A stretch of DNA of 64,000 nt from Candidatus Kaiserbacteria bacterium (GCA_016217925.1 JACRFK010000004.1:133869-197868); one strand, 5' to 3'. Shown: positions 7,432-60,118, numbered from the stretch's first letter. Numbers and translations are program-made. The notes: generated from the letters alone by a model not told the origin.

Positions 7432-7512
7432 ATGGCGGCAGATTTGAAGGGGCTTAAGACGCAATTTCTCCCCGCCGGAGGCGGGTCCTCCTCCGGAGGA
7501 GAATACTTATGA
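7432..7512 (+). CDS. 26-aa upstream ORF repeating the Xer N-terminus, coupled by ATGA
   Basis: [26 protein letters not shown]; TACAAT just upstream; stop overlaps ATG 7509. Confidence 0.6.
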
Positions 7513-9686
7513 AAGACTTAAAGGGTTTGAAAACCGAGTTTCTGGAGTATATAGAAATTGAAAAAGGGCGGAGCGTGAAGACGGTCGAGAATTATGACCG
7601 CTATCTCATGCGGTTCCTCAATTTTGCAAAGGTGAAGTCCCCTGCCCAGATAACCGAGCAGATGGTGCGTGAATTCCGTATCACACTCAATCGTTCCGCA
7701 GGGGTTACAGGCACGATGAAGAAGAATACACAAAATTATCACCTCATCGCGCTGCGCGCGTTCCTCAAGTTCCTCCGCAAGCGTGATATCGAATCGCTCA
7801 ATCCCGAGCGTATCGAACTTGCCAAGGTCGGTGGACGCGATTTGGATCTCATTACCGCCGATGAGCTCAACAGGATCATGCGTGCGCCCACGGGTGACGA
7901 GCTAGGGGGTCTGCGCGACCGCGCGATCCTCGAACTTTTGTTTTCTACCGGTTTGCGCGTCTCGGAACTCTGCAATTTGAATCAGGATATTGACCTCTCT
8001 CGCGATGAGTTCTCGGTGCGCGGCAAAGGAGAAAAGGTGCGCGTGGTATTTCTCTCGGCGTCCGCGAAAAAAGCGGTGGCCGAATATTTGAAAAAGCGCG
8101 GTGATATGAGCAAGGCGTTGTTCGTCAGTTACGGCAAAGGCGGCACGAGCAAGGGAAAAGATTTACCGCGCATCACTCCGCGCTCCGTCGAGCGATTGGT
8201 AAAACAGTACGCGATAAAAGCGGGCATCACGCGCAAAGTGACGCCGCATGTCATTCGTCACTGTCTCCACGCGGAAACGCGAATAATGGGAAACCCTTCG
8301 CTCACAACGGCGAAGGAGTTGTTCGCATCCGAAAAGCAAAAGAAGGTCCTTGGATTTGATTGGAAAAACAATCGTCTCATGCGGGCCTCGATTAAGAGAC
8401 GTGAAACACATTCCACACAACGCCTGATTTCTTTATGGGCGGACGGCCGGGAAATTTGCTGCACCCCGTACCACAGCTTTTTCACCCCGAGCGTTAACGG
8501 TATTGTGCCGATACAAGCACAAGACCTGAAAGTTGGGGATTATGTAGCGGGAGTTCGCAGTGTTCAATGGTCCCAGGGAAGTAGACCCGAAAGCGAATCC
8601 ACGGACTTTTGGAGATTGCTTGGATATATTCTTGGTGATGGAACGCTTAGTGAGGCACGGCGAGGTATTATCATAAATGATAAAGAACGTCGCCACATTG
8701 ACCTATACAACGAAATTGTTTTTCGTGTGACGGGCAGGTGCGGAACCGTCACTAAATTGTCAGGCGGCAATGGGTACGCGCTCAATATCTACAATGTTGG
8801 TTTTCTGAAAAAGGTACGAGCTCTTGGAATTACACAGCGTTCAAAAGAACGGCGTGTCCCCGCGGGCCTGTTTCAGGAGTCCGAGACCGCGATCCGAGCC
8901 TTTCTTGCAGGCTATTACGATGCCGAAGGAAATAACGGCAGGATTAAGATGTTCTCCGCAAGTAAGGAACTTCTGAAAGACATACAAATGTTGCTGCTCC
9001 GGTTGTCTATCGAGAGCATACTGCTCCGCCGAGAGCGGCGAGTGAAACTTCCCCAAGGTCGGGTCATTGACCACGTCATATACATACTGCATGTGACGTA
9101 TCCACCAAGCGAGAATCGCTTTGTGGAACTCATACCAACATTCAAACAACGCATACGACCGAAAAAAGAGTGGCAGCGACTCGATATTGCATTACCTACG
9201 CAACCACTGATTCGAGGACTCTACCCCCTTTTGCTTGCCAAGAGGGGTTTCATCCATTGGCTCGGTAACCGTTATGGCATACGGTACCTGAAACGTTATA
9301 CAAGAATATGTACAACACCGCTGCTGCTCTCTGTGTTTCTTAAGGCCTGCAAAGAAAAAAGAATTCGAAATCCATTTATCAAGCAACTCGAGGTTCTCAA
9401 CCGACTCGATTCGATTCGATGGCTCCGAGTGAAGAAGCTGGAGATGGTCGGCGGTGTATCGAAAGTTTACGATTTCACGATAGAACCAACGCACAATTTC
9501 ATCACAGATGGTTTTATCTCGCACAACTCATTCGCGACTGACCTACTCGAAAATGGTGCCGATCTGCGTAGCGTGCAAGCGCTCCTCGGCCACGCCAACA
9601 TCGCAACGACCCAAGTCTACACGCACGTGACCGACAAACACCTCCGCGAAGTCCATCAGGCATTTCACGGCAAACGCCGCAAATAA
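7509..9686 (+). CDS. XerC/XerD-like tyrosine recombinase containing an intein
   Basis: [31 protein letters not shown]|intein|[34 protein letters not shown]; spliced product about 303 aa. Confidence 0.93.
8262..9527 (+). mobile_element. intein (422 aa) with LAGLIDADG homing endonuclease
   Basis: Starts Cys (CLHAET), block [14 protein letters not shown] and [10 protein letters not shown] motifs, VYDF block F, ends HN before Ser+1. Confidence 0.93.
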
Positions 9687-39701: not shown

Positions 39702-41444
39702 ATGTACATCTCCGACACACATTTGAAATCATTTCTCGCCGATGCGGGGCTTGTCTCGGCAAAAGATTTTGATACCGCAGAAGTGGAGGCCAAGCAGACC
39801 GGGCAATCGGTCGGCGACATCCTAAAAGCGAAGAGCGCCATCGGGGAGGACGAACTGCGCCGCACCTATGCGTACATCCTCGGCATTCCATTTGTATCGC
39901 TTGTGGGGACCACCATCCAGTACGACGTGCTCTCTCTTCTTCCCGAACCCGTTGCGCGCCGCAACAACATCATCGCCTACAACCATCGCGGCGAAGAGTT
40001 GGAGGTCGCGATGCTCGATACTGATGACCTGGCGGCGATAGATTTCATCAAGAAGAAGACGCATCTCAAGGTCTTGCCGCGGCTCACCGATGTCGCATCT
40101 ATCAAAGCAGCACTCAAACAGTACCAACAGGGGCTCAAAGATAATCTCGGTGACGTCATCGGCCGTGAGACCGCCGCGCTCGAAAAGACCGCTCTCGGAG
40201 AGGGAAAAGAAACAGACCTCAAAGAGATCGCGGAAGGGACACCCACAGTACGCATCGTCGATACGCTTATAAGGCACGCCAATGCCCAGAACGCATCCGA
40301 CATCCACATCGAACCGCTCGAGCAGGCTCTCCTCATCCGCTACCGCATAGACGGTATTTTGCACGACGCGATGGAATTGCCGAAGCATGCCGCGGCCGCC
40401 ATTACCGCGCGCATTAAGGTGCTCGCCAACATGCGCCTCGACGAGCATCGTTTGCCGCAAGATGGACGGTTTGGCGCGGAGAGCGGAGGCGAGAAGATAT
40501 CGTTCCGTGTTTCTATTTTGCCGACCTACTACGGCGAGAAGATCGTTATGCGTCTTTTGCGTGACTCGATATCGGGATTCACTCTCGAGAGTATCGGATT
40601 CCATGGCGTAGGACTCGAGCGCATGCACGAAGCAATGCGCAAGACGACCGGCATGATCCTCTCCTGCGGCCCGACGGGTGCCGGAAAATCAACGACGCTC
40701 TATACATTGCTCGATATCGTGAATACTCCGGATGTGAATATCTCGACCATCGAAGACCCGATAGAGTATCAGATGCCGCGCATCAATCAGACCCAAGTGC
40801 GGCCCGATATCGGATTTACTTTTGCCAACGGCCTCCGCAGCCTCGTGCGTCAGGATCCGGATATCGTGATGGTGGGTGAAATACGCGACAAAGAGACAGC
40901 CTCGCTCGCGGTGAACGCCGCCCTCACGGGCCACCTAGTACTCTCGACACTGCACACGAATTCGGCGGCGGGTGCCGTCGCGCGATTACTCGACATGGGC
41001 ATCGAGCCGTTCCTTCTCGTTTCCACGCTGCGCGTCATCATCGGTCAGCGCTTGGTGCGCAAACTCGCTCCCGATAAAGAAAAGTACGAACTTTCACGCG
41101 ATGAGCAGGCACAGCTTGAGCATGTGGTAGACCAAGGCGTCGTCCTGAAAGCACTCAAAGACGAAAAAGCCCTTCCTCCCGAAGCGACGTGGAAGAATAT
41201 GTCTTTCTTCAAACCAAAAGAAAACGGAAAGACTCCCTCTGGCTATTCCGGACGCGTCGGTATTTACGAGGTCTTACCGGTAACTTCAACCATCAAAGAG
41301 CTCGTGATGAAAAATGATACCGGCGATGCGATAGAGCATCAGGCGCGGAGCGAAGGAATGCTCACGATGAGCGAGGACGGCATTTTTAAATCGGTGCAAG
41401 GCGTCACGACAATAGAAGAAGTACTCCGAGTCATTACGGAGTAG
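39702..41444 (+). CDS. pilB: type IV pilus assembly ATPase (PilB/GspE family)
   Basis: ASDIHIEP, RLPQDGR, GPTGAGKSTT, RQDPDIVMVGEIRD, TGHLVLSTLHTN. Confidence 0.93.
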   Translation: MYISDTHLKSFLADAGLVSAKDFDTAEVEAKQTGQSVGDILKAKSAIGEDELRRTYAYILGIPFVSLVGTTIQYDVLSLLPEPVARRNNIIAYNHRGEELEVAMLDTDDLAAIDFIKKKTHLKVLPRLTDVASIKAALKQYQQGLKDNLGDVIGRETAALEKTALGEGKETDLKEIAEGTPTVRIVDTLIRHANAQNASDIHIEPLEQALLIRYRIDGILHDAMELPKHAAAAITARIKVLANMRLDEHRLPQDGRFGAESGGEKISFRVSILPTYYGEKIVMRLLRDSISGFTLESIGFHGVGLERMHEAMRKTTGMILSCGPTGAGKSTTLYTLLDIVNTPDVNISTIEDPIEYQMPRINQTQVRPDIGFTFANGLRSLVRQDPDIVMVGEIRDKETASLAVNAALTGHLVLSTLHTNSAAGAVARLLDMGIEPFLLVSTLRVIIGQRLVRKLAPDKEKYELSRDEQAQLEHVVDQGVVLKALKDEKALPPEATWKNMSFFKPKENGKTPSGYSGRVGIYEVLPVTSTIKELVMKNDTGDAIEHQARSEGMLTMSEDGIFKSVQGVTTIEEVLRVITE

Positions 41445-41489
41445 GGGAAAAGAGAAAAAGTATTCGTTCCGCACGCTATACTTACGTGA

Positions 41490-42707
41490 ATGGTGAAGTT
41501 TACCTACACCGCTGAAAAGAGCGATGGCGAAGTATACAAGGGTGTCGCCGAGACGGCCGACCGTTTCGAACTCTACGGCATCGTGCGGCAAGAGGGCGGC
41601 AGGATTATTTCGATGGAAGAAACGGGCGGAAGCGGCTGGCTCTCGATGAGTTACTGGAACGCGAAAATGTCGCGCATTACCGAATACGAAAGGATACTCC
41701 TTGCGCGCAACTTGGGCGCCATGTTGGGCGCAGGATTGGCACTTGCGCGCGCTTTGGCCGTAATAGAACGGCAGACCAAAAATCCGAAAATGTCGTCGGT
41801 AATATCGCAAATATCTTCGGATGTGCGCCGCGGAGATACCCTGCATGATTCACTTGCAAAATATCCAAGCGTGTTCTCCAAGTTGTTCGTCGCGATGGTA
41901 CGCGCCGGCGAAGAGGGTGGAGATCTCGCGGCATCCTTGCAGGTCATATCGGATCAGATGGAGCGAATGTACTCCTTGAAAAAAAAGATACGCGGCGCAC
42001 TCATCTATCCGTGCATCATCCTCATCGCAATATTCGGTATCGGCATACTCATGATGATAGAGGTGGTGCCGACGCTCGCGCAAACATTCGAAGAAATGAA
42101 TGCAGAGCTCCCAGCATCAACGCAATTCGTCATCAGCGTCAGCAACTTCCTCGTGGAGTACACATTCTTGGCGCTCGGGGGTCTCGTCGGCTTCGGCGTC
42201 CTTATCTATGTTGCCGCGCATACAAAAGTGGGAAAGCGCGGATTGGATTTTTTCTTCCTGCACTTGCCGCTCATCGGACCGATGGTGCGCGAAGTAAATG
42301 CTGCGCGTACGGCTCGTACGCTTGCGTCGCTCCTATCATCGGGTGTTGATGTCATCACCTCGCTCGATATCGTGGGCGAAGTCGTCCAGAATTCCTATTT
42401 CCGTGCTGTCGTCAAGGATGCCGCACTCGGTGTGAGCGGAGGGCAATCGCTCGCGGCCGCATTCGTGCGGCGAGAGGACTTGTATCCCGCCTTCGTTGGC
42501 GAAATGATGGCGGTCGGCGAAGAGACCGGTCAAGTTTCCGAAATGCTGAAACGTCTCGCGGTGTTCTATGAGGACGAAGTGGACCGCAAGACCAAGGACA
42601 TGTCCACCATCATCGAGCCGTTCCTCATGCTTCTCATCGGGGGCGCCGTCGGATTCTTTGCAGTCTCGATGATAAGCCCGATCTATTCGCTTTCTCAAAA
42701 TATCTGA
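41490..42707 (+). CDS. pilC: type IV pilus inner membrane platform protein (PilC/GspF)
   Basis: MVRAGEEGG, ALIYP, VGEETG, IIEP. Confidence 0.92.
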   Translation: MVKFTYTAEKSDGEVYKGVAETADRFELYGIVRQEGGRIISMEETGGSGWLSMSYWNAKMSRITEYERILLARNLGAMLGAGLALARALAVIERQTKNPKMSSVISQISSDVRRGDTLHDSLAKYPSVFSKLFVAMVRAGEEGGDLAASLQVISDQMERMYSLKKKIRGALIYPCIILIAIFGIGILMMIEVVPTLAQTFEEMNAELPASTQFVISVSNFLVEYTFLALGGLVGFGVLIYVAAHTKVGKRGLDFFFLHLPLIGPMVREVNAARTARTLASLLSSGVDVITSLDIVGEVVQNSYFRAVVKDAALGVSGGQSLAAAFVRREDLYPAFVGEMMAVGEETGQVSEMLKRLAVFYEDEVDRKTKDMSTIIEPFLMLLIGGAVGFFAVSMISPIYSLSQNI

Positions 42708-45222: not shown

Positions 45223-46642
45223 GCGCGCGCAGCGCGGCGTGACGACGATGCTCGTCATCGCGTTTATGGGGATTTTCCTCCTCATCATGGGCACTATCAC
45301 AAGCTACATATTCGAACAGGCGAAGTATGGGCGTGCTCTCTACAGTCGTGAACAGGCCCTGAGCATCGCCGAGGCGGGGCTCGAATATTATCGATGGTTC
45401 CTCGCGCACAATCCCAACAATCTGACCAATGGCACTGGTCTACCTGGTCCGTATACCTATACGGTGAGCGACCCCGAAGGTGGCACGCTGGGCTCGGCAT
45501 CAATATCGGTGGCGGGCAACTCGCAGTGCGGCGTCATCCAATCAATAGATATAACCTCGCAAGGCGCCTCGGACAGCAATACAACCTTCAAACGAACGCT
45601 TCTCGGGCGATACATGCGCAGATCTGTCGCTGCGTATTCGTATTTGTTGAATAGCAACGTATGGGCGGGAGCGGACCGCGCGATTACAGGCCAGTATTTT
45701 TCCAATGGCGGTATCCGTATGGACGGCAGTAACAACTCAGATGTCTCAAGTGCTCTTACCACCTGGAACTGCACGTCGAGTTACGGTTGTTCTCCTGCCG
45801 TGAATCCCGCAGCGGGGGTACTCGGGAGCGGGTCGGGGTCGGCGCTCTGGCACAATTCGGCCGCATCGATAGATTTTGCCGGTATCGCGACCAGCCTTAC
45901 GAACCTGAAGACCTACGCGCAAACAGGCGGCGGATTGTATTTCGCACCCTCTACCGGATCGGTCAATAGTCGCGGGTACCACATGATCTTCAAGTCGAAC
46001 GGGACGGTCGACGTGTACCGCGTGACGGGAACGACGGGCATAACAGGCTATCCGGATGGCAGCACAGCCACGACCGAATACAATATCATCGCAACGCAGA
46101 ATTTGCTCGGCAACTACACGGTACCTTCGGGCTGCCGCTTGATATTCGTCGAGGATCGCGTGTGGGTCGAAGGTGTCGTAAGCGGCAAGGTTACCATCGT
46201 CGCTGCGACACCGAGTGACACAGGCACGACTCCGTATGTGATCCTCCCCAACAACCTTACGTATGCGACCAATGATGGAACCGCTGGCTTTACCGCCATT
46301 TCGGAATCGGATGTGCTCATACCGCTCAACTCACCGAACGTGATGGAGATCCACGGTATCTTCGTCGCGCATAATGGCCGATACGGTCGCAATCATTACA
46401 CGACCTCGAGCCTGATTTCGCAATGGGACCCGTACGTCCTACGCTCGCAGCTGACAACCGTCGGCACAATTGTTTCCAGTGGCCGCACCGGTACGAAGTG
46501 GATTAATACTTCCACAGGAGTTACCACGTCGGGCTACCAAACACGCATTGATGCATACGACCAATTGCAGGCGACCGATCCGCCGCCGTTTACCCCTTCT
46601 GCCTCTACCGACTACAGTTATGTGCTGTGGAGAGAACAATGA
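45137..46642 (+). CDS. PilX-like minor pilin
   Basis: RG|VTTMLVI, QALSIAEAGLE, C-terminal PPPFTP..WREQ. Confidence 0.75.
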   Translation: MAYSVSRMAGERKRADARSLHTPYSILHTRAQRGVTTMLVIAFMGIFLLIMGTITSYIFEQAKYGRALYSREQALSIAEAGLEYYRWFLAHNPNNLTNGTGLPGPYTYTVSDPEGGTLGSASISVAGNSQCGVIQSIDITSQGASDSNTTFKRTLLGRYMRRSVAAYSYLLNSNVWAGADRAITGQYFSNGGIRMDGSNNSDVSSALTTWNCTSSYGCSPAVNPAAGVLGSGSGSALWHNSAASIDFAGIATSLTNLKTYAQTGGGLYFAPSTGSVNSRGYHMIFKSNGTVDVYRVTGTTGITGYPDGSTATTEYNIIATQNLLGNYTVPSGCRLIFVEDRVWVEGVVSGKVTIVAATPSDTGTTPYVILPNNLTYATNDGTAGFTAISESDVLIPLNSPNVMEIHGIFVAHNGRYGRNHYTTSSLISQWDPYVLRSQLTTVGTIVSSGRTGTKWINTSTGVTTSGYQTRIDAYDQLQATDPPPFTPSASTDYSYVLWREQ

Positions 46643-46654
46643 TACAATCCGTCA

Positions 46655-46723
46655 ATGAATCCCGCCCTTTCTCGTTTCTCACGTTGCGCGCAACCGATTA
46701 TTCAGATAGAAAGAGCGGGATGA
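46655..46723 (+). CDS. 22-aa hairpin upstream ORF coupled to tpiA
   Basis: MNPALSRFSRCAQPIIQIERAG*; TACAAT 6 nt upstream; TGA overlaps tpiA ATG. Confidence 0.55.
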   Translation: MNPALSRFSRCAQPIIQIERAG

Positions 46724-47475
46724 AATCGATTGTCGTTGCCAATTGGAAGATGAATCCGGGGACGATGCGCGAAGCAAAGAAGCTTTTTGATGCAACGAGA
46801 GAGGCGGCCGAGTCCGCGAAGCATGTATCGGTCATTGTGGCACCTCCCGCGATCTTTTTGCGCGAGTTGCGAGCGCGGTACAAAGGAAAGCGCCTTGGGT
46901 TTGCGATACAACAAGCAAGTGCGGAGGGAAGCGGTGCGTACACCGGAGATATTTCTTTGCCGCAAGCAAAGGACGCGGGTGCGCAGTACGTGATAGTGGG
47001 CCACTCCGAGCGGCGCGCCAAAGGCGAGTCGAATGAAGATGCCGGGAAGGTCGTCGCTGCCGCGCTCGAAAGCGACATGACCCCCATCCTGTGTGTCGGA
47101 GAAAAGGCGCGCTCACACGAAGGTGAACATTTCAATGTAGTAAAGGAACAGTTGCGTACGGGATTTTCCGGTGTGGAGCCGGGGAAGATCTCGAAAGTAC
47201 TCGTCGCATACGAGCCTGTGTGGGCAATCGGCGGTGAGAAAGCCATGAGCCCGCGCGATATGCACGAAATGGCGATATTTATTCGCAAGACGATAATCGA
47301 ACTTCACGGCGAAAAAGGAATGGGCGTCCGAATCATTTATGGCGGCGCAGCGACCGAGTCGAATGCGGCAGAGATGTTGCGCGATGGTGATGTCATCGGG
47401 CTTCTCGTGGGACACGTGAGTATCAACGAGGCGCGTTTTGCTGCACTCTTACAAGCATTAGAGAACGCACGATGA
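46720..47475 (+). CDS. tpiA: triosephosphate isomerase
   Basis: VANWKMN, VGHSERR, AYEPVWAIG, YGG. Confidence 0.95.
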   Translation: MKSIVVANWKMNPGTMREAKKLFDATREAAESAKHVSVIVAPPAIFLRELRARYKGKRLGFAIQQASAEGSGAYTGDISLPQAKDAGAQYVIVGHSERRAKGESNEDAGKVVAAALESDMTPILCVGEKARSHEGEHFNVVKEQLRTGFSGVEPGKISKVLVAYEPVWAIGGEKAMSPRDMHEMAIFIRKTIIELHGEKGMGVRIIYGGAATESNAAEMLRDGDVIGLLVGHVSINEARFAALLQALENAR

Positions 47476-47537
47476 ATCCCGCCCTTTCGCACCCAAGATA
47501 CTCATTCAGGTTTATTAGCATAGAAAGAGCGGGATGA
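47472..47537 (+). CDS. 21-aa hairpin linker ORF bridging tpiA and pgk
   Basis: MNPALSHPRYSFRFISIERAG*; ATGA overlaps at both ends. Confidence 0.55.
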   Translation: MNPALSHPRYSFRFISIERAG

Positions 47538-48658
47538 AATGCATCGATGAGGTACCGGCAAGCGAATTAAAAGGGAAGCGCGTACTTCTGCGTCTCGATA
47601 TCAACTTGCCCATTGGAGATGATGGCGAGGCTTCCGACGTTTTTCGTATCGAACAAGCGTGGAAGACCATACGCTATCTTGCCGAACGCGGTGCCCGTGT
47701 GATCATCGTTTCCCACTTTGGACGCGAAGGCGATTCCATCGAGCCGGTTGCGCGCGCTATGAAAAAATTCGGTGCCGCCGTATTTATTCCCGACCTTGTT
47801 GGCCCCATTGCCCGTGGTGCCGCGAAGTCCATGAAAGACGGCGAAATTGCACTCCTTGAGAATGTCCGCCGTGATGTGCGCGAGACCGAAAACGACGAAG
47901 GGTTTGCAAAAGAACTTGCCGCGCTTGCAGATATATACGTTGACGACGCGTTTGCCGCCGCGCACCGTGCTCACGCATCTATCGTCGGGGTGCCGAAATT
48001 CCTTCCTTCATACGCGGGATTGTTGATGCGGAACGAGGTAAGAGAGATTGATGCCGCCCGCGCGCCCGGGCACCCGTCACTCGCCATTCTTGGTGGTGCG
48101 AAATTCGAGACGAAAGCACCGCTCATTAAATTATTGCTCGAAAAATATGACCACGTGTTTATCACGGGCGCGCTTGCCAACGATGTCTTCAAGGCACGCG
48201 GACTTCCGGTCGGCCGCTCGCTCATTTCAAAGGAGCAGCCTGGTGAGGATATACTTTCGAATCCGCATTTCCTTGCTCCCGTCGATGTGACGACAGAAGC
48301 ATCCGACGGGCAGGCACGTGTAAAGAAACCGCAGGACGTGCAGCCTGACGATAAGATAGTAGACATCGGCCCCAGTACCGTCGCCATGCTCGCTCCGCAC
48401 ATTGCGGGTGCAAAATTCATTCTCTGGGCCGGCCCGACGGGCATGTACGAGAACGGTTACATCCACTATACACAAGCAATTGCGGAGCTCATTTCAAAAA
48501 ACGAAGGGAAAAAAGTCATCGGGGGCGGTGACACCATCGCCGCCATCGAAGCGACCGGCGTATCGCAAAAAGACCTCGGCTTCCTTTCGACCGGCGGCGG
48601 CGCCATGCTCGAATACTTGCTAAAGGGAACATTACCGGGAGTCGAGGCTCTTGGCTAG
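47534..48658 (+). CDS. pgk: phosphoglycerate kinase
   Basis: RLDINLP, SHFGR, LLENVR, AHRAHAS, GGGDT, STGGGA. Confidence 0.96.
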   Translation: MKCIDEVPASELKGKRVLLRLDINLPIGDDGEASDVFRIEQAWKTIRYLAERGARVIIVSHFGREGDSIEPVARAMKKFGAAVFIPDLVGPIARGAAKSMKDGEIALLENVRRDVRETENDEGFAKELAALADIYVDDAFAAAHRAHASIVGVPKFLPSYAGLLMRNEVREIDAARAPGHPSLAILGGAKFETKAPLIKLLLEKYDHVFITGALANDVFKARGLPVGRSLISKEQPGEDILSNPHFLAPVDVTTEASDGQARVKKPQDVQPDDKIVDIGPSTVAMLAPHIAGAKFILWAGPTGMYENGYIHYTQAIAELISKNEGKKVIGGGDTIAAIEATGVSQKDLGFLSTGGGAMLEYLLKGTLPGVEALG

Positions 48659-49157: not shown

Positions 49158-50861
49158 ATGCATGACCTTGTTGTAAGACTTCTTGCAAAACGGGGGATTA
49201 CCGAAGCCGCTGCGGTCGCGGCGTTTTTGAATCCGGATTATGAGCTGCACACGCACTCGCCTTTTTTGTTACGGGGAATGGATGTTGCCGTCGCCCGCGT
49301 GTTTGACGCGATGGAGAAAAACGAACGGGTTGCGGTGTATGCAGACTTTGATTGCGACGGGATTCCCGGTGCGGCCCTCCTTTCAGACCTTTTCAACAAA
49401 ATAGAGTACAAGAACTTCGAAGTGTATCTGCCACATCGCGACAGGGAAGGATACGGGTTTCATACGGAAGCAATTGAAACGCTTGCGGGGCAGGGAGTAA
49501 AACTCATCATCACCGTCGACGTCGGCACGACCGCATTTGACGCGGTCGCGTTCGCCAAGGAAAAAGGAGTTGATGTCATTGTGACCGACCACCACGAGCC
49601 CATTAGAGAGCCTTCGGCCTCTAACGGGCCAGGAATACCCGGGGCACTACCGGGTGCAGTTGCGATGCTTAATCCAAAACTGGCACCGTACCCCTTTCCG
49701 CATTTGTGTGGCGCGGCGGTCGCCTTCAAGCTCGCACAAGCAATTCTTGCGGAGGGCCACAAGAGGGAATTGAAACAATTCGAAGCAATTCCCCAGGGCT
49801 GGGAAAAATGGCTCCTCGATATGGTCGCGATCGCGACTGTTGCAGATATGGTCCCGCTCGTCGGAGAAAATCGTGCACTCACACACTGGGGCTTGCAAGT
49901 CTTGCGCAAATCACCGCGGCCGGGGATACAAGCGCTTTGTGCAAAATTGCGATTACGTCAGTCAGAACTTTCCGAAAGTGATATCGGCTTCTCTATCGCT
50001 CCGCGCGTGAACGCCGCATCCCGGATGGATGAGCCCGACTTGGCACTACAGCTTCTCATCACGCGCGACGTTGCCGAAGCCGAGCATCTGGCGGCGCAAC
50101 TTGAAAAATTGAATACACGCAGGAAAAGCGTGGTCGCAAGTTTGGTAAAACAGGCGCGCACACATGTGAAAGAGCGGTACAAAGATGATGAACGTGTCGT
50201 CGTCGTGGGCAATCCCGAATGGAAACCGGCGCTCCTCGGCCTTGCCGCCAACTCCGTCATGTCGGACAGAGGCGGCGTCGTGTGCATGTGGGGACGCGAT
50301 GTGAACGGAAAATTGAAAGGCTCGTGCCGCTCGGACGGCGACGTTTCGGTTCTCGAACTTTTTGAGAATGCCGGAGATGTGTTCGAGGAATACGGAGGAC
50401 ATGCTGCATCCTGTGGCTTCACCGTTTCACACGAGCGCGTGCATCAATTGGGGGAGGCGCTTGCGCGTGCCGCAGAAAAATTGCCGCCTCGCGTAGATGG
50501 AGTCGCACTCGAACACGACGTGTCCGTCACCCTTTCCGATATTTCGTCGGCGTTCTTTAAAGAGGTTTCGAAGCTTGCCCCATTCGGCATCGGCAATCCG
50601 AAACCCATCTTTCTTTTGAACAACACGACCATCGTCGGGGTGAAACGTTTCGGCAAGGAAAATAATCACGTAGAGGTTATGCTCGAATGCCGCGCGAGCG
50701 GGAACTCCGCTCGCGCGTTCGAATTTTTCAAATCACCCGGCGATTTTTCTCTTGAGCCAGCTCCGGGACAATTTGCGAGCCTCCTTGCGACCATCGAGCG
50801 CGACTCCTACCGCGGTGGGCTTGCGCTCAGGATTGTTGATATCGTTCCCGTGTCGGTATAA
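49158..50861 (+). CDS. recJ: single-stranded DNA exonuclease RecJ
   Basis: DFDCDG, TVDVG, TDHH, PRVNAASR, GGHAASCG, PFGIGNPKP. Confidence 0.93.
   Translation: MHDLVVRLLAKRGITEAAAVAAFLNPDYELHTHSPFLLRGMDVAVARVFDAMEKNERVAVYADFDCDGIPGAALLSDLFNKIEYKNFEVYLPHRDREGYGFHTEAIETLAGQGVKLIITVDVGTTAFDAVAFAKEKGVDVIVTDHHEPIREPSASNGPGIPGALPGAVAMLNPKLAPYPFPHLCGAAVAFKLAQAILAEGHKRELKQFEAIPQGWEKWLLDMVAIATVADMVPLVGENRALTHWGLQVLRKSPRPGIQALCAKLRLRQSELSESDIGFSIAPRVNAASRMDEPDLALQLLITRDVAEAEHLAAQLEKLNTRRKSVVASLVKQARTHVKERYKDDERVVVVGNPEWKPALLGLAANSVMSDRGGVVCMWGRDVNGKLKGSCRSDGDVSVLELFENAGDVFEEYGGHAASCGFTVSHERVHQLGEALARAAEKLPPRVDGVALEHDVSVTLSDISSAFFKEVSKLAPFGIGNPKPIFLLNNTTIVGVKRFGKENNHVEVMLECRASGNSARAFEFFKSPGDFSLEPAPGQFASLLATIERDSYRGGLALRIVDIVPVSV
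49598..49629. repeat. TCTAACGGG family element in-frame in recJ
   Basis: gcccattagag-agccttcggc-ctctaacgggc directly after the DHH motif. Confidence 0.6.
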
Positions 50862-50870
50862 TGCGGACTC

Positions 50871-51281
50871 ATGGCTAAACAAGTCGTTATCTACACTGAT
50901 GGAGGTGCCCGAAATAATCCGGGGCCCGCGGGTGCCGGCGTCGTCATCATTGATGAAAAGAAGAAAGTCACACTGAAAAAATATCTCGGAAGTCAGACCA
51001 ATAATTGGGCAGAGTACGAGGCCGTAGTACTCGCGCTTTCAGAGGCGAAGAGGCTCGGGCTCGGCGGGCGCCCTCTAGAAGTGCGTATGGATAGCAAGCT
51101 CGTCGTTGAGCAAATTCTCGGCAATTGGAAAATAAAAGAACCGACGCTCAAGCCACAGGCTGCGAAAGTTCGCGCGCTGCTCGCGGCAGATTTTCCAAAA
51201 TATCATTTCGTACACATTCCGCGCGAGGAAAACGCCGAGGCGGATGCGCTCGTCAATGAGGTGCTAGATTCATCCCGTTAG
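50871..51281 (+). CDS. rnhA: ribonuclease HI family protein
   Basis: YTDGGARNNPGPAG, TNNWAEY, DSKLVV, IPREENAEADAL. Confidence 0.92.
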   Translation: MAKQVVIYTDGGARNNPGPAGAGVVIIDEKKKVTLKKYLGSQTNNWAEYEAVVLALSEAKRLGLGGRPLEVRMDSKLVVEQILGNWKIKEPTLKPQAAKVRALLAADFPKYHFVHIPREENAEADALVNEVLDSSR

Positions 51282-51340
51282 AAATAGCGCGCCCCAAAGG
51301 CCCGTCGGGCGTGCAAGCACGGGCGCGATTTCTAACGGGA
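51273..51340. repeat. CCCGTTAGA/TCTAACGGG family element supplying the rnhA stop codon
   Basis: tcccgttagaaat...atttctaacggga perfect 13-bp inverted ends. Confidence 0.7.
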
Positions 51341-51369: not shown

Positions 51370-52866
51370 ATGAACATGTCTGTCAATGTCTTATGGGCAC
51401 TCGTCGGAGGATTCTTGGTGGGAGTCTTTGCGCGCTCATTCTTTTTGGTGCCGTGGCCATTTGCGGCTTTTTTATTCTTACTTTCCCTCGGCGCGCTCGC
51501 CCTCGCATACTTCGAAAGGTCAAAATGGCAGCAGTTGGTAGTCGTTTCGGTCGCGCTCACCGCATGTGCCGCAGGGATTTTTCGCATGGATCTGGCCTCG
51601 TTGCGCGGTGCTCCGGAACTCACCTCGCATCTCGGGGAGACGGTGACCGTCGAAGGTTTGGTCGTTGACGAGCCGGATGTTCGCGAAAGCAACATGCGGC
51701 TGCACATACGCGTTGGGGAAACCGGCGTACTCGCCACGGTGCCGCCGCATACGGAAGTGCACTACGGCGACATCGTCCGCGCTAAAGGCAAGCTCGGATT
51801 GCCGGAGAATTTCGACACAACTCTCGGTAGGCAATTTAATTATCCGATGTATCTCGCCAAAGACGGGATCGTATACACGCTCTCGTTTGCGCAAGCCGAT
51901 ACGGTAGCGAAAGGGCACAGCAACTTCCTGAGAACGGCGGCGATTTGGACAAAGCAGCAGTATCTGAAAGGGTTGCAAGTAGTTTTGCCGGAGCCGGAAT
52001 CGGGACTTGCCGGTGGCATTACGGTGGGAGACAAGCGCGGAGTGGGAAAGGAGTACTCGGACATTTTTATTGTCGTCGGGCTTGTGCACATCATCGTGCT
52101 TTCCGGATACAACATAACCGTCGTGATGAACTTGGTCGGGAAGTTGCTCGCGGGCGCATCGCGCGTGGTACAACTCTCGACGAGCGTACTCATCGTTGTG
52201 TTCATTGTGCTCATGACGGGCATGGCGCCAAGTGCGACACGTGCCGGCGCGATGGCGCTCCTCCCGCTCGTCGCGCGCATGACGGGGCGCATGTATCTGG
52301 CGCTCCGCGCGCTTGGGGTCGTCGCACTCGTGATGGTGCTTTGGAATCCGTATATCCTCGCGTTTGACCCGGGATTCCAATTATCCGTACTCGCAACACT
52401 CGGACTCGTGCTTTTCTCGCCCGTATTTGCGCAGTGGCTGTATTGGATACCGGAAAAATTCGCACTGCGCGAGATCGCCGCCTCGACACTCGGTACGCAA
52501 ATGACGGTATTGCCACTCTTGTTGTATCAAAATGGGCTTCTCTCGCTCGTCGCATTGCCCGCGAACCTCCTTGCGCTCATCGTGGTGCCGCTCGCGATGG
52601 CACTCTCTGTCATCTCCGCGATGGCGGGGATATTGTTCGGCTTGCCCGCCCTGAGCGCAGTCGAAGGGTTTGGGACGTTCATCGCATTTCCTGCATATGT
52701 ATTGCTCGCGTATATCATCAAAGTTGCTGAACTTTTCGCCGCGTTGCCATTTTCCGCGGTATCGGTCGCCGCGTTCAGCGCGTGGTGGATGTTTGGAGCG
52801 TACGCGCTCATGTTCGGCGGGTTGTGGTCCATGAAAAAAGGCACGACCGATGGTCGCGCCTTTTAA
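51370..52866 (+). CDS. comEC: ComEC/Rec2 competence channel (membrane part)
   Basis: GLVHIIVLSGYNI, PSATRA, DPGFQLSVLAT, LPANLL. Confidence 0.9.
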   Translation: MNMSVNVLWALVGGFLVGVFARSFFLVPWPFAAFLFLLSLGALALAYFERSKWQQLVVVSVALTACAAGIFRMDLASLRGAPELTSHLGETVTVEGLVVDEPDVRESNMRLHIRVGETGVLATVPPHTEVHYGDIVRAKGKLGLPENFDTTLGRQFNYPMYLAKDGIVYTLSFAQADTVAKGHSNFLRTAAIWTKQQYLKGLQVVLPEPESGLAGGITVGDKRGVGKEYSDIFIVVGLVHIIVLSGYNITVVMNLVGKLLAGASRVVQLSTSVLIVVFIVLMTGMAPSATRAGAMALLPLVARMTGRMYLALRALGVVALVMVLWNPYILAFDPGFQLSVLATLGLVLFSPVFAQWLYWIPEKFALREIAASTLGTQMTVLPLLLYQNGLLSLVALPANLLALIVVPLAMALSVISAMAGILFGLPALSAVEGFGTFIAFPAYVLLAYIIKVAELFAALPFSAVSVAAFSAWWMFGAYALMFGGLWSMKKGTTDGRAF

Positions 52867-58287: not shown

Positions 58288-58469
58288 GACAAAGAGCCGC
58301 CGCCCAGTTTTCTTTCTCGAGCCATCCCTAGTACACCCCGTGAGATAAGCTAACGCGTGTTATGACGTACGTTTGAAAATACAGAATCTTTTTGAGTGCC
58401 CACAAAAACTGGACTTTTTTATCTCATGGGGTACACTCCTCGGACTCCCTTCGGGGATTTTTAATTGTC

Positions 58470-59946: not shown

Positions 59947-60013
59947 TCTTGCATTTCTTCGAATTTCCGTTACATTACTGAGACGCGCACAGCGCGTTTT
60001 TGTTTAAATCACT

Positions 60014-60118
60014 ATGGCACGGGATTACCCACTCGAAAAAGTCCGCAACCCCGCAGGAAAGCGCTATGCACTTCCGACGGGGCATGCTTCGGTAGCTAAC
60101 TTCGCATTAAATATATGA
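60014..60118 (+). CDS. 34-aa upstream ORF repeating the EF-G N-terminus, coupled by ATGA
   Basis: [23 protein letters not shown]...NI*; TGA overlaps fusA ATG. Confidence 0.6.

Follow-up and report, generated by a model that had tools for sequence, protein, structure and literature searches.

In a stretch of 64,000 nucleotides from a Candidatus Kaiserbacteria bacterium (hereafter, the window), the genes for triosephosphate isomerase (tpiA) and phosphoglycerate kinase (pgk) each begin at a short hairpin element of the same family. Based on sequence comparisons, we consider it probable that these are gene-less insertions into start codons, which are likely derived from and moved by a GIY-YIG nuclease and likely tolerated by way of ribosome restart at an ATGA overlap. 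The elements have defined ends and a target duplication, their sites occur as empty alleles in relatives, insertion has been recurrent, longer copies with the same ends bear a nuclease, and open reading frames coupled to the host gene are in excess of expectation. The first-pass annotation, which had reported one hairpin at the starts of both genes, placed the two copies correctly.

We refer to elements with arms of the tpiA/pgk type, TCCCGCYCTTTC–loop–GAAAGRGCGGGA, as family 1, and to a second, larger family with the arms YCCCGTTAGA..TCTAACGGGR as family 2. The coordinates of the features at tpiA and pgk are given in Table 1.

Table 1. Features of the window at tpiA and pgk, and an element with arms of a third type
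Feature	Position	Strand	Remarks
Extended -10-like box, TG-A-TACAAT	46640..46648	+	Predicted leaderless start; original tpiA ATG lies 6 nt downstream
tpiA uORF	46655..46723	+	22 codons; from the original tpiA ATG to a TGA overlapping the rebuilt ATG
Left 4-bp target duplication TGAA (tpiA)	46656..46659	+	Empty site of G505 holds one copy
Family-1 element (tpiA)	46660..46720	+	61 nt; arms 46660-46671 and 46709-46720
Right duplication TGAA (tpiA)	46721..46724	+	
tpiA, triosephosphate isomerase	46720..47475	+	251 aa; Pfam TIM, E 5e-68
pgk uORF	47472..47537	+	21 codons; from the original pgk ATG to a TGA over the rebuilt ATG
Left duplication TGAA (pgk)	47473..47476	+	Contains the tpiA stop
Family-1 element (pgk)	47477..47534	+	58 nt; arms 47477-47488 and 47523-47534
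Right duplication TGAA (pgk)	47535..47538	+	
pgk, phosphoglycerate kinase	47534..48658	+	374 aa; Pfam PGK, E 2e-101
Third-arm-type element	58336..58431	+	96 nt; upstream of rpsL, at a -10-like box whose TACA is duplicated

As had been noticed, the loops of the two elements differ in length by 3 nt (61 versus 58 nt in all), and the stops of both upstream ORFs (uORFs) overlap the next ATG to give ATGA. The uORF peptides read MNPALSRFSRCAQPIIQIERAG at tpiA and MNPALSHPRYSFRFISIERAG at pgk, each up to the stop codon. The tpiA element has a conserved inner TTA at 46698-46700, and the A with which it ends also serves as the first base of the tpiA ATG. The -10-like box ahead of it overlaps the stop of the upstream ORF, and the same box is seen by eye at the same spacing at most empty tpiA orthologs. 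The pgk uORF does begin inside the tpiA stop (47472 versus the tpiA end at 47475), and the original pgk ATG overlaps that stop already in the empty allele. Because tpiA and pgk are ATGA-joined in the empty allele of the nearest relative (G505), the ‘unbroken chain’ of the first-pass annotation amounts to the landing of an element in an existing stop-start junction. Exact arm matches within the window number four, and these are the arms of the two copies; 19 matches are found with one mismatch, against 9.45 expected. The stems are more stable than those of shuffled sequences (z of -2.0 to -3.3 on the + strand, and -3.6 and -3.8 on the - strand), and an Rfam scan of the window gave no match over either element at E values up to 5. 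A 16.8-kb contig of DNA run X1, from which the window may derive, spans both elements and a 260-nt contig of DNA run X2 spans that of tpiA; since the contigs of two runs cross them without differences, the elements are not an assembly artefact. Among the joints listed for the contigs of the DNA runs none skips an element, which leaves room for rare empty alleles.

The first-pass annotation had extended the design to xer and fusA. ATGA-coupled frames are present at these genes, but family-1 arms are absent, and we rejected xer (7509) and fusA (60115) as members. Their leaders, at approximately 7432-7512 and 60013-60118, consist of the recoded first ~12 codons of xer or fusA followed by a different palindrome, and because they are long recoded copies of the gene’s own N-terminus without family-1 arms, they represent a different thing. 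The xer gene (7509-9686) encodes a tyrosine recombinase of the Xer type that is split by an intein, which has a LAGLIDADG domain. The window also harbors type IV pilus/T2SS ATPase and platform genes and a ComEC-type competence gene (39702-42707 and 51370-52866), which are a possible entry route for single-stranded DNA.

The family-1 arm pair occurs in 24 copies in the genome carrying the window (G000; 981 kb in 17 contigs, with 918 genes from our own gene caller and 847 predicted ATG genes). Fifteen copies have an ATG on both sides and all of these are at starts of ORFs of at least 110 aa, two are at TACA/TGTA sites, and seven are short, imperfect hairpins of 28-35 nt without duplication. The terminal inverted repeats are 12-bp arms with one C-A mismatch in most copies. 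In all 15 ATG copies the element ends T...A between 4-bp TGNN duplications, and the duplicated word co-varies with the host gene (TGAA in 12, TGAG in three); the unit is therefore TCCCGCYCTTTC..GAAAGRGCGGGA between two 4-bp words. The last A of the element turns the second copy of the duplication back into ATG. Pfam identifies enolase, topoisomerase I, a class II tRNA synthetase, DnaJ, FtsW, RuvX and an EPSP/MurA-type enzyme among the targets, and finds no match for three of the 15 target proteins scanned. In family 2, 28 of the 32 copies with an exact duplication are likewise on starts. Other family-2 copies duplicate TTGA at TTGAC words (G000:C1:36589, 113512 and 145232; C2:1488 and 7285), which are possibly -35 boxes. 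Two short or degenerate family-2 hairpins are seen in the window at 49598-49629 and 51273-51340 (C2:183466 and C2:185141), one of them in frame inside recJ and the other upstream of the competence gene. The element at 58336..58431 belongs to the same wider group but not to family 1, and arms of its type enclose GIY-YIG genes at two other loci (L213 and L490).

The empty-site comparison suggested earlier was made with the best 30 of the 110 loci from those genus genomes that have a pgk match (110 of 116), namely G000 and 29 relatives. The pgk site is empty in 27 relatives; in G483 it is occupied by family 1, and in G436 by family 2. The tpiA site is clearly empty in 27 and holds family 2 in G016; the one weak call, of 284 nt (L149), was set aside as a chance repeat around an upstream gene. 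Exact pre-insertion sequence is found at both genes in G505, whose genome is 81% complete and whose tpiA and pgk are 90% and 92% identical to those of G000; it is empty at all eight sites checked and has no match to the family-1 or family-2 pattern. In the pgk tree the gene of G000, with the element, pairs with that of G505, without it (support 100), and the gene of G483, also with the element, branches within genes that have empty sites. Moreover, five starts (tpiA, pgk, lysS, C2:24532 and C6:20882) are occupied by both families, each in a different genome. Since the sites are empty in most relatives and a second family is found on several of the starts, these are insertions and not conserved regulators. 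All 15 ATG copies of G000 would be younger than its split from G505, barring their loss in the latter. A number of family-2 copies are common to G000 and the more distant G427, with 73-97% identity in the loops as compared with 45% at four-fold sites, and at two such sites G505 has the exact empty sequence (L230, L234, L290, L301). These observations point to allele exchange between species, precise loss, selection on the loop, or rewriting of interiors on insertion.

The distribution of family 1 is patchy. Its pattern is present in 15 of 115 other genus genomes, in which a control pattern has no match, and in a few records labelled Kaiserbacteria, Uhrbacteria and Omnitrophica. Together with the genome size, these records suggest a host within the Patescibacteria. 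The long form of the pattern was not found in any of 401 genomes of the order, and the short form gave only one, chance-like match in viral contigs. A metagenome scan for copies of 260-290 nt, a size range that excludes the copies of 297-300 nt described below, yielded two loci, both of them chance matches inside one transporter-like gene.

The reading frames of the elements were analyzed in a pool of 43 ATG-class family-1 copies (15 from G000 and 28 from the loci of relatives), 40 of which are at least 50 nt long. Of the latter, 33 have lengths that place a TGA over the ATG (58, 61, 64, 94, 97 or 100), and all 33 are stop-free against 22.6 expected upon shuffling of the variable part (P about 4e-7, a value that, like the one given below, overstates the case because the copies share ancestry and the relay rule was chosen after inspection of the data). 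The other sense frames of these copies are open in 18 of 33 each. Thus, the genome-wide arm search and frame test proposed in the first-pass annotation show that the frames are not random. The remaining seven copies all bring the frame to within 10 nt of the host ATG: in three, the uORF terminates at an inner ATGA from which a new frame runs to the host ATG; in another three, translation would end 10 nt short of the host ATG, in one of them after a restart; and the last is a fusion. A relay is hence available in 40 of 40 copies against 29.1 expected, although the seven off-length copies on their own give 7 versus 4.9 (P 0.07). At one orthologous site, represented by L178 and L185, an inner ATG that had been in frame becomes a stop-start overlap through the loss of 1 nt, which suggests how a two-step restart may arise. 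Family 2 uses all three frames; 22 of its 29 copies are relayed, against 11.6 expected, and seven are without relay. The preservation of the frame is real. The arms are almost fixed even at third codon positions, the conserved inner TTA and TA ignore codon positions and the rest is dissimilar; the peptide is therefore not the conserved unit. It would be a by-product, what is apparently preserved being no more than that translation runs on without a break. The earlier idea that the elements target starts and stay harmless by relaying ribosomes is thus favored by the empty sites, the recurrent insertion and the excess of open coupled frames, while the relay itself is what we infer from them.

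In G000, the 3' end of the 16S rRNA (G000:C8:477) is without the CCTCC anti-Shine-Dalgarno core, and Shine-Dalgarno words are weak. A -10 box lies 6-9 nt upstream in 152 of the 847 predicted ATG genes, with a genome-wide peak at 6 nt. Folding of the elements with their flanks predicts that the A of the rebuilt AUG is paired in all 15 G000 copies and that the 12 bases before it are mostly paired. Because of this pairing, the absence of CCTCC and the many leaderless-type genes, little else than the uORF would deliver ribosomes to the host gene. Both kinds of setting are represented in the window, tpiA having a leaderless-type start and pgk being junction-coupled. A -10 box is present at 16 of the 43 targets, compared with a baseline of 78 of 318 element-free ATGA starts in G000; 20 of the 43 (5 of 15 in G000 alone) lie at an ATGA in which a long upstream ORF terminates, compared with 47 of 318; and eight have neither. 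A promoter-bubble model of targeting fails to cover pgk.

Starts make up 267 of the 1191 ATGA[AGT] sites in G000 that are non-coding or starts, and yet all 15 ATG copies are on starts, for which the chance is about 2e-10 by a hand calculation using our own gene calls. From this we infer that start codons are actively preferred. The alternative is that insertion is untargeted beyond a short TG motif and that the copies seen are survivors, which rebuild the start or promoter box and keep a coupled frame. The duplicated word is indeed short (TGNN), two family-1 copies in G000 and several in relatives are at the TACA of -10-like boxes, four family-2 copies are at non-start TTGA sites, and the conservation of the frame is itself best read as survivorship. 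However, the non-start non-coding ATGA[AGT] sites, 924 in number, would be no less harmless to occupy and are left empty by the ATG copies, and the same starts are repeatedly occupied by two families, so that we consider a lack of targeting unlikely. We give distinctly less credence to domestication of the elements by the host, be it as hairpin switches controlled by translation or as leader-peptide regulators of core genes. Such a role would suit the list of targets (tpiA, pgk, enolase, topoisomerase I, class II tRNA synthetase, DnaJ, FtsW and RuvX), the predicted folding of the hairpin over the start, and the family-2 loops that exceed four-fold sites in identity between orthologous sites. 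The translation-unwound switch named as one option in the first-pass annotation is nevertheless not supported, the sites being empty in most relatives, the nearest included; also, a given site may hold unlike elements in different genomes, neither loops nor peptides are conserved from gene to gene, and Rfam offers no match.

Two further readings concern the peptide and the RNA. RAGP and RAPP are ribosome-arrest motifs, and the C-terminal RAG-stop of the uORF, present as ERAG before the stop in most copies, resembles them. An arrest peptide is nonetheless the least credible of the readings considered, as variants ending in EGAG, EIAG, EMAG, EKAG, ERVG and ERAR are present, the peptide is divided into two parts in three copies, third positions of the arm codons hardly vary while the inner conserved bases fall off codon positions, and amino-acid conservation at the same gene across relatives, which would mark an arrest or leader peptide, was not found. 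Removal or skipping of the hairpin at the RNA level, by splicing or by ribosome hopping between the two ATGAR copies, could draw on the stem, which juxtaposes these matching words; it would have no need of stop-free coupled frames, yet these are found in 33 of 33 and 40 of 40 copies, and it appears very improbable.

Three copies with family-1 arms are much longer, at 297-300 bp (L199-L201; two pattern matches of 297-300 nt and one protein match), and enclose a single 85-aa GIY-YIG ORF (PF01541) that uses its own ATG. Their nucleases form one clade (100/98). Other small GIY-YIG matches in the genus, at most 54% identical, have other arms or none and are mostly in elements of ~290 nt. Each GIY-YIG clade of the genus (L199-L228) has its own inverted ends, and the ~290-nt elements are at TATG starts, beside tRNA-like sequences or at promoter boxes; one locus (L228) is a tandem pair. 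Family 2 also has a full-length element in G000 (G000:C8:58824-59100; L013; 277 nt), the GIY-YIG ORF of which borrows the host ATG and ends over the rebuilt ATG, and a second full-length case with GIY-YIG in G483. Among 19 database homologues, one has SERAG as its last residues and another three continue with GKGGIQ or KSGIQ, ends that are consistent with read-through into an arm. Two further small GIY-YIG ORFs of G000 (C1:264986-265198 and C6:39164-39364) have stops that overlap, by eye, the 5' part of tRNA-like sequences.

There is also evidence that counts against the nuclease-bearing copies as parents. No family-1 nuclease is present in G000, and none of the three full-length copies combines a start codon with a clean duplication, as L199 duplicates a -10 box instead of a start and L200 and L201 are without exact duplication. 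In wider searches, the nuclease clade gave one weak match, with other ends, among 401 genomes of the order, and none among 301 genomes of the phylum or in viral contigs. The loops of the mini-elements are no more similar to the full-length interiors or to the host genome than shuffled sequences are, and in a comparison of orientation between minis and full-length copies only L199 could be scored. In L199-L201 the nuclease stop lies inside the right arm in a frame other than that of the uORF, and the uORF is therefore not simply the parents’ ORF. We know of no strand-joining activity of a GIY-YIG domain alone. Other candidate partners were rejected, there being no arms within 1.5 kb of 15 Y1 transposase loci (from 20 matches in five genomes) or of two reverse transcriptase loci. 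A 526-aa protein with a reverse-transcriptase domain is encoded at G000:C1:280867-281322 (L480), with no element arms nearby.

The elements share features with several known systems. Bacterial MITEs such as Correia, ERIC and RUP are short, gene-less and patchily distributed, with inverted repeats, target duplication and a longer coding relative with the same ends. Family 1 is likewise gene-less and patchy, with inverted repeats, a 4-bp duplication, empty alleles and a longer relative with the same ends, but this relative encodes a GIY-YIG nuclease and not a DDE, Y1 or serine transposase, and insertion rebuilds a start codon. Nor are the interiors near-identical in any two copies, unlike in a typical recent burst: the best pair is 76% identical over the whole interior, and the variable parts are 30-37% identical versus 25-27% when shuffled, short of the likeness of interiors that a MITE would have. 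The seven 28-35-nt imperfect hairpins with family-1 arms recall the REP/REPIN repeats of RAYT systems, for which CGTC-tagged REPs are known from the available text of PMC3733652. Family 1, however, has no GTAG or CGTC tag, its long copies have target duplications, and its arms are not near the 15 Y1 (HUH) loci noted above.

In behavior the closest parallel is with MIRUs, a mycobacterial sequence family without dyad symmetry that often occurs in tandem and for which we know of no enzyme. The available text of PMC12548453 describes them as apparently mobile short repeats that insert at start codons, bear an ORF with -4 nt coupling to the host gene and are thought to keep expression intact, and start-codon insertion with -4 coupling is therefore a known strategy. 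Family 1 follows it in 33 of 40 copies directly and in three more in two steps, and also resembles MIRUs in its 20 of 43 copies at an ATGA ending a long upstream ORF. It differs in its inverted repeats, strong dyad symmetry, hairpin fold and unrelated loops, in being single at each site instead of tandem, in its small, CPR-like genome, in its occurrence at leaderless-type starts and -10 boxes, and in its candidate nuclease parent. The proposal of an undescribed system accordingly holds for one part only, as the insertion strategy is on record for MIRUs, whereas neither the family-1 element nor a hairpin-ended GIY-YIG parent was found described in the literature searched, which took in few subscription papers and other sources in part.

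For the nuclease, the nearest precedent is Ssn, a single-domain GIY-YIG gene tied to NTS/SRM hairpin repeats and hypothesised to be a mobile element in the available text of Chenal 2025 (PMC11893778). The 85-aa PF01541 ORF between family-1 arms is similar to it, the NTS core as given there shares TCCCGC..GCGGGA with the arms, and the motif tyrosines, arginine and glutamate align. Yet the family-1 nucleases are only 25-39% identical to four NTS-adjacent nucleases, lack their C-terminal extension and fall outside their long-branch group, which, with these four as the only proxy, places them outside the Ssn (cd10448) clade. The SRM pattern has two matches in G000, neither of which is a family-1 copy, and family 1 has one arm at each end as opposed to the one whole hairpin of NTS in the text available. 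Target duplication and start-codon insertion are not mentioned for Ssn/NTS in the available text of PMC11893778. Overall, family 1 probably acts like a MIRU and has the structure of a MITE, with a probable GIY-YIG parent.

We propose that the hairpins likely derive from a ~300-bp element whose sole gene is the 85-residue GIY-YIG nuclease. The nuclease would catalyze movement, probably by cutting single-stranded hairpin DNA, and host repair would join the ends. The element would land on a start codon and rebuild the ATG with its last base; ribosomes arriving at the old ATG would translate through the stem and so unwind it, and after termination at ATGA they would reinitiate on the host gene. 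In a bolder form of this proposal, which we put forward only tentatively and regard as somewhat doubtful, the lone 85-residue nuclease would be the transposase of a new, minimal class of insertion sequence that picks sites where expression starts (start codons and -10 boxes), rebuilds them and rewrites the interiors of its minis as they are moved; through selection, core genes across the genome would be left with unique leaders that relay ribosomes and that may also vanish tracelessly.

Should the GIY-YIG protein prove to be the mobiliser, we would have here a self-moving element of ~300 bp based on a fold not known as a bacterial transposase, and the nuclease-plus-hairpin hypothesis (Chenal 2025) would become testable with a matched nuclease, mini-element and empty target. 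About 45 starts are altered in G000, and gene callers are misled there on N-termini and small ORFs. For a genome that lacks the canonical anti-Shine-Dalgarno sequence, the copies also provide a natural experiment on translational coupling, in which dozens of independent insertions and frameshifts show the spacing that is tolerated.
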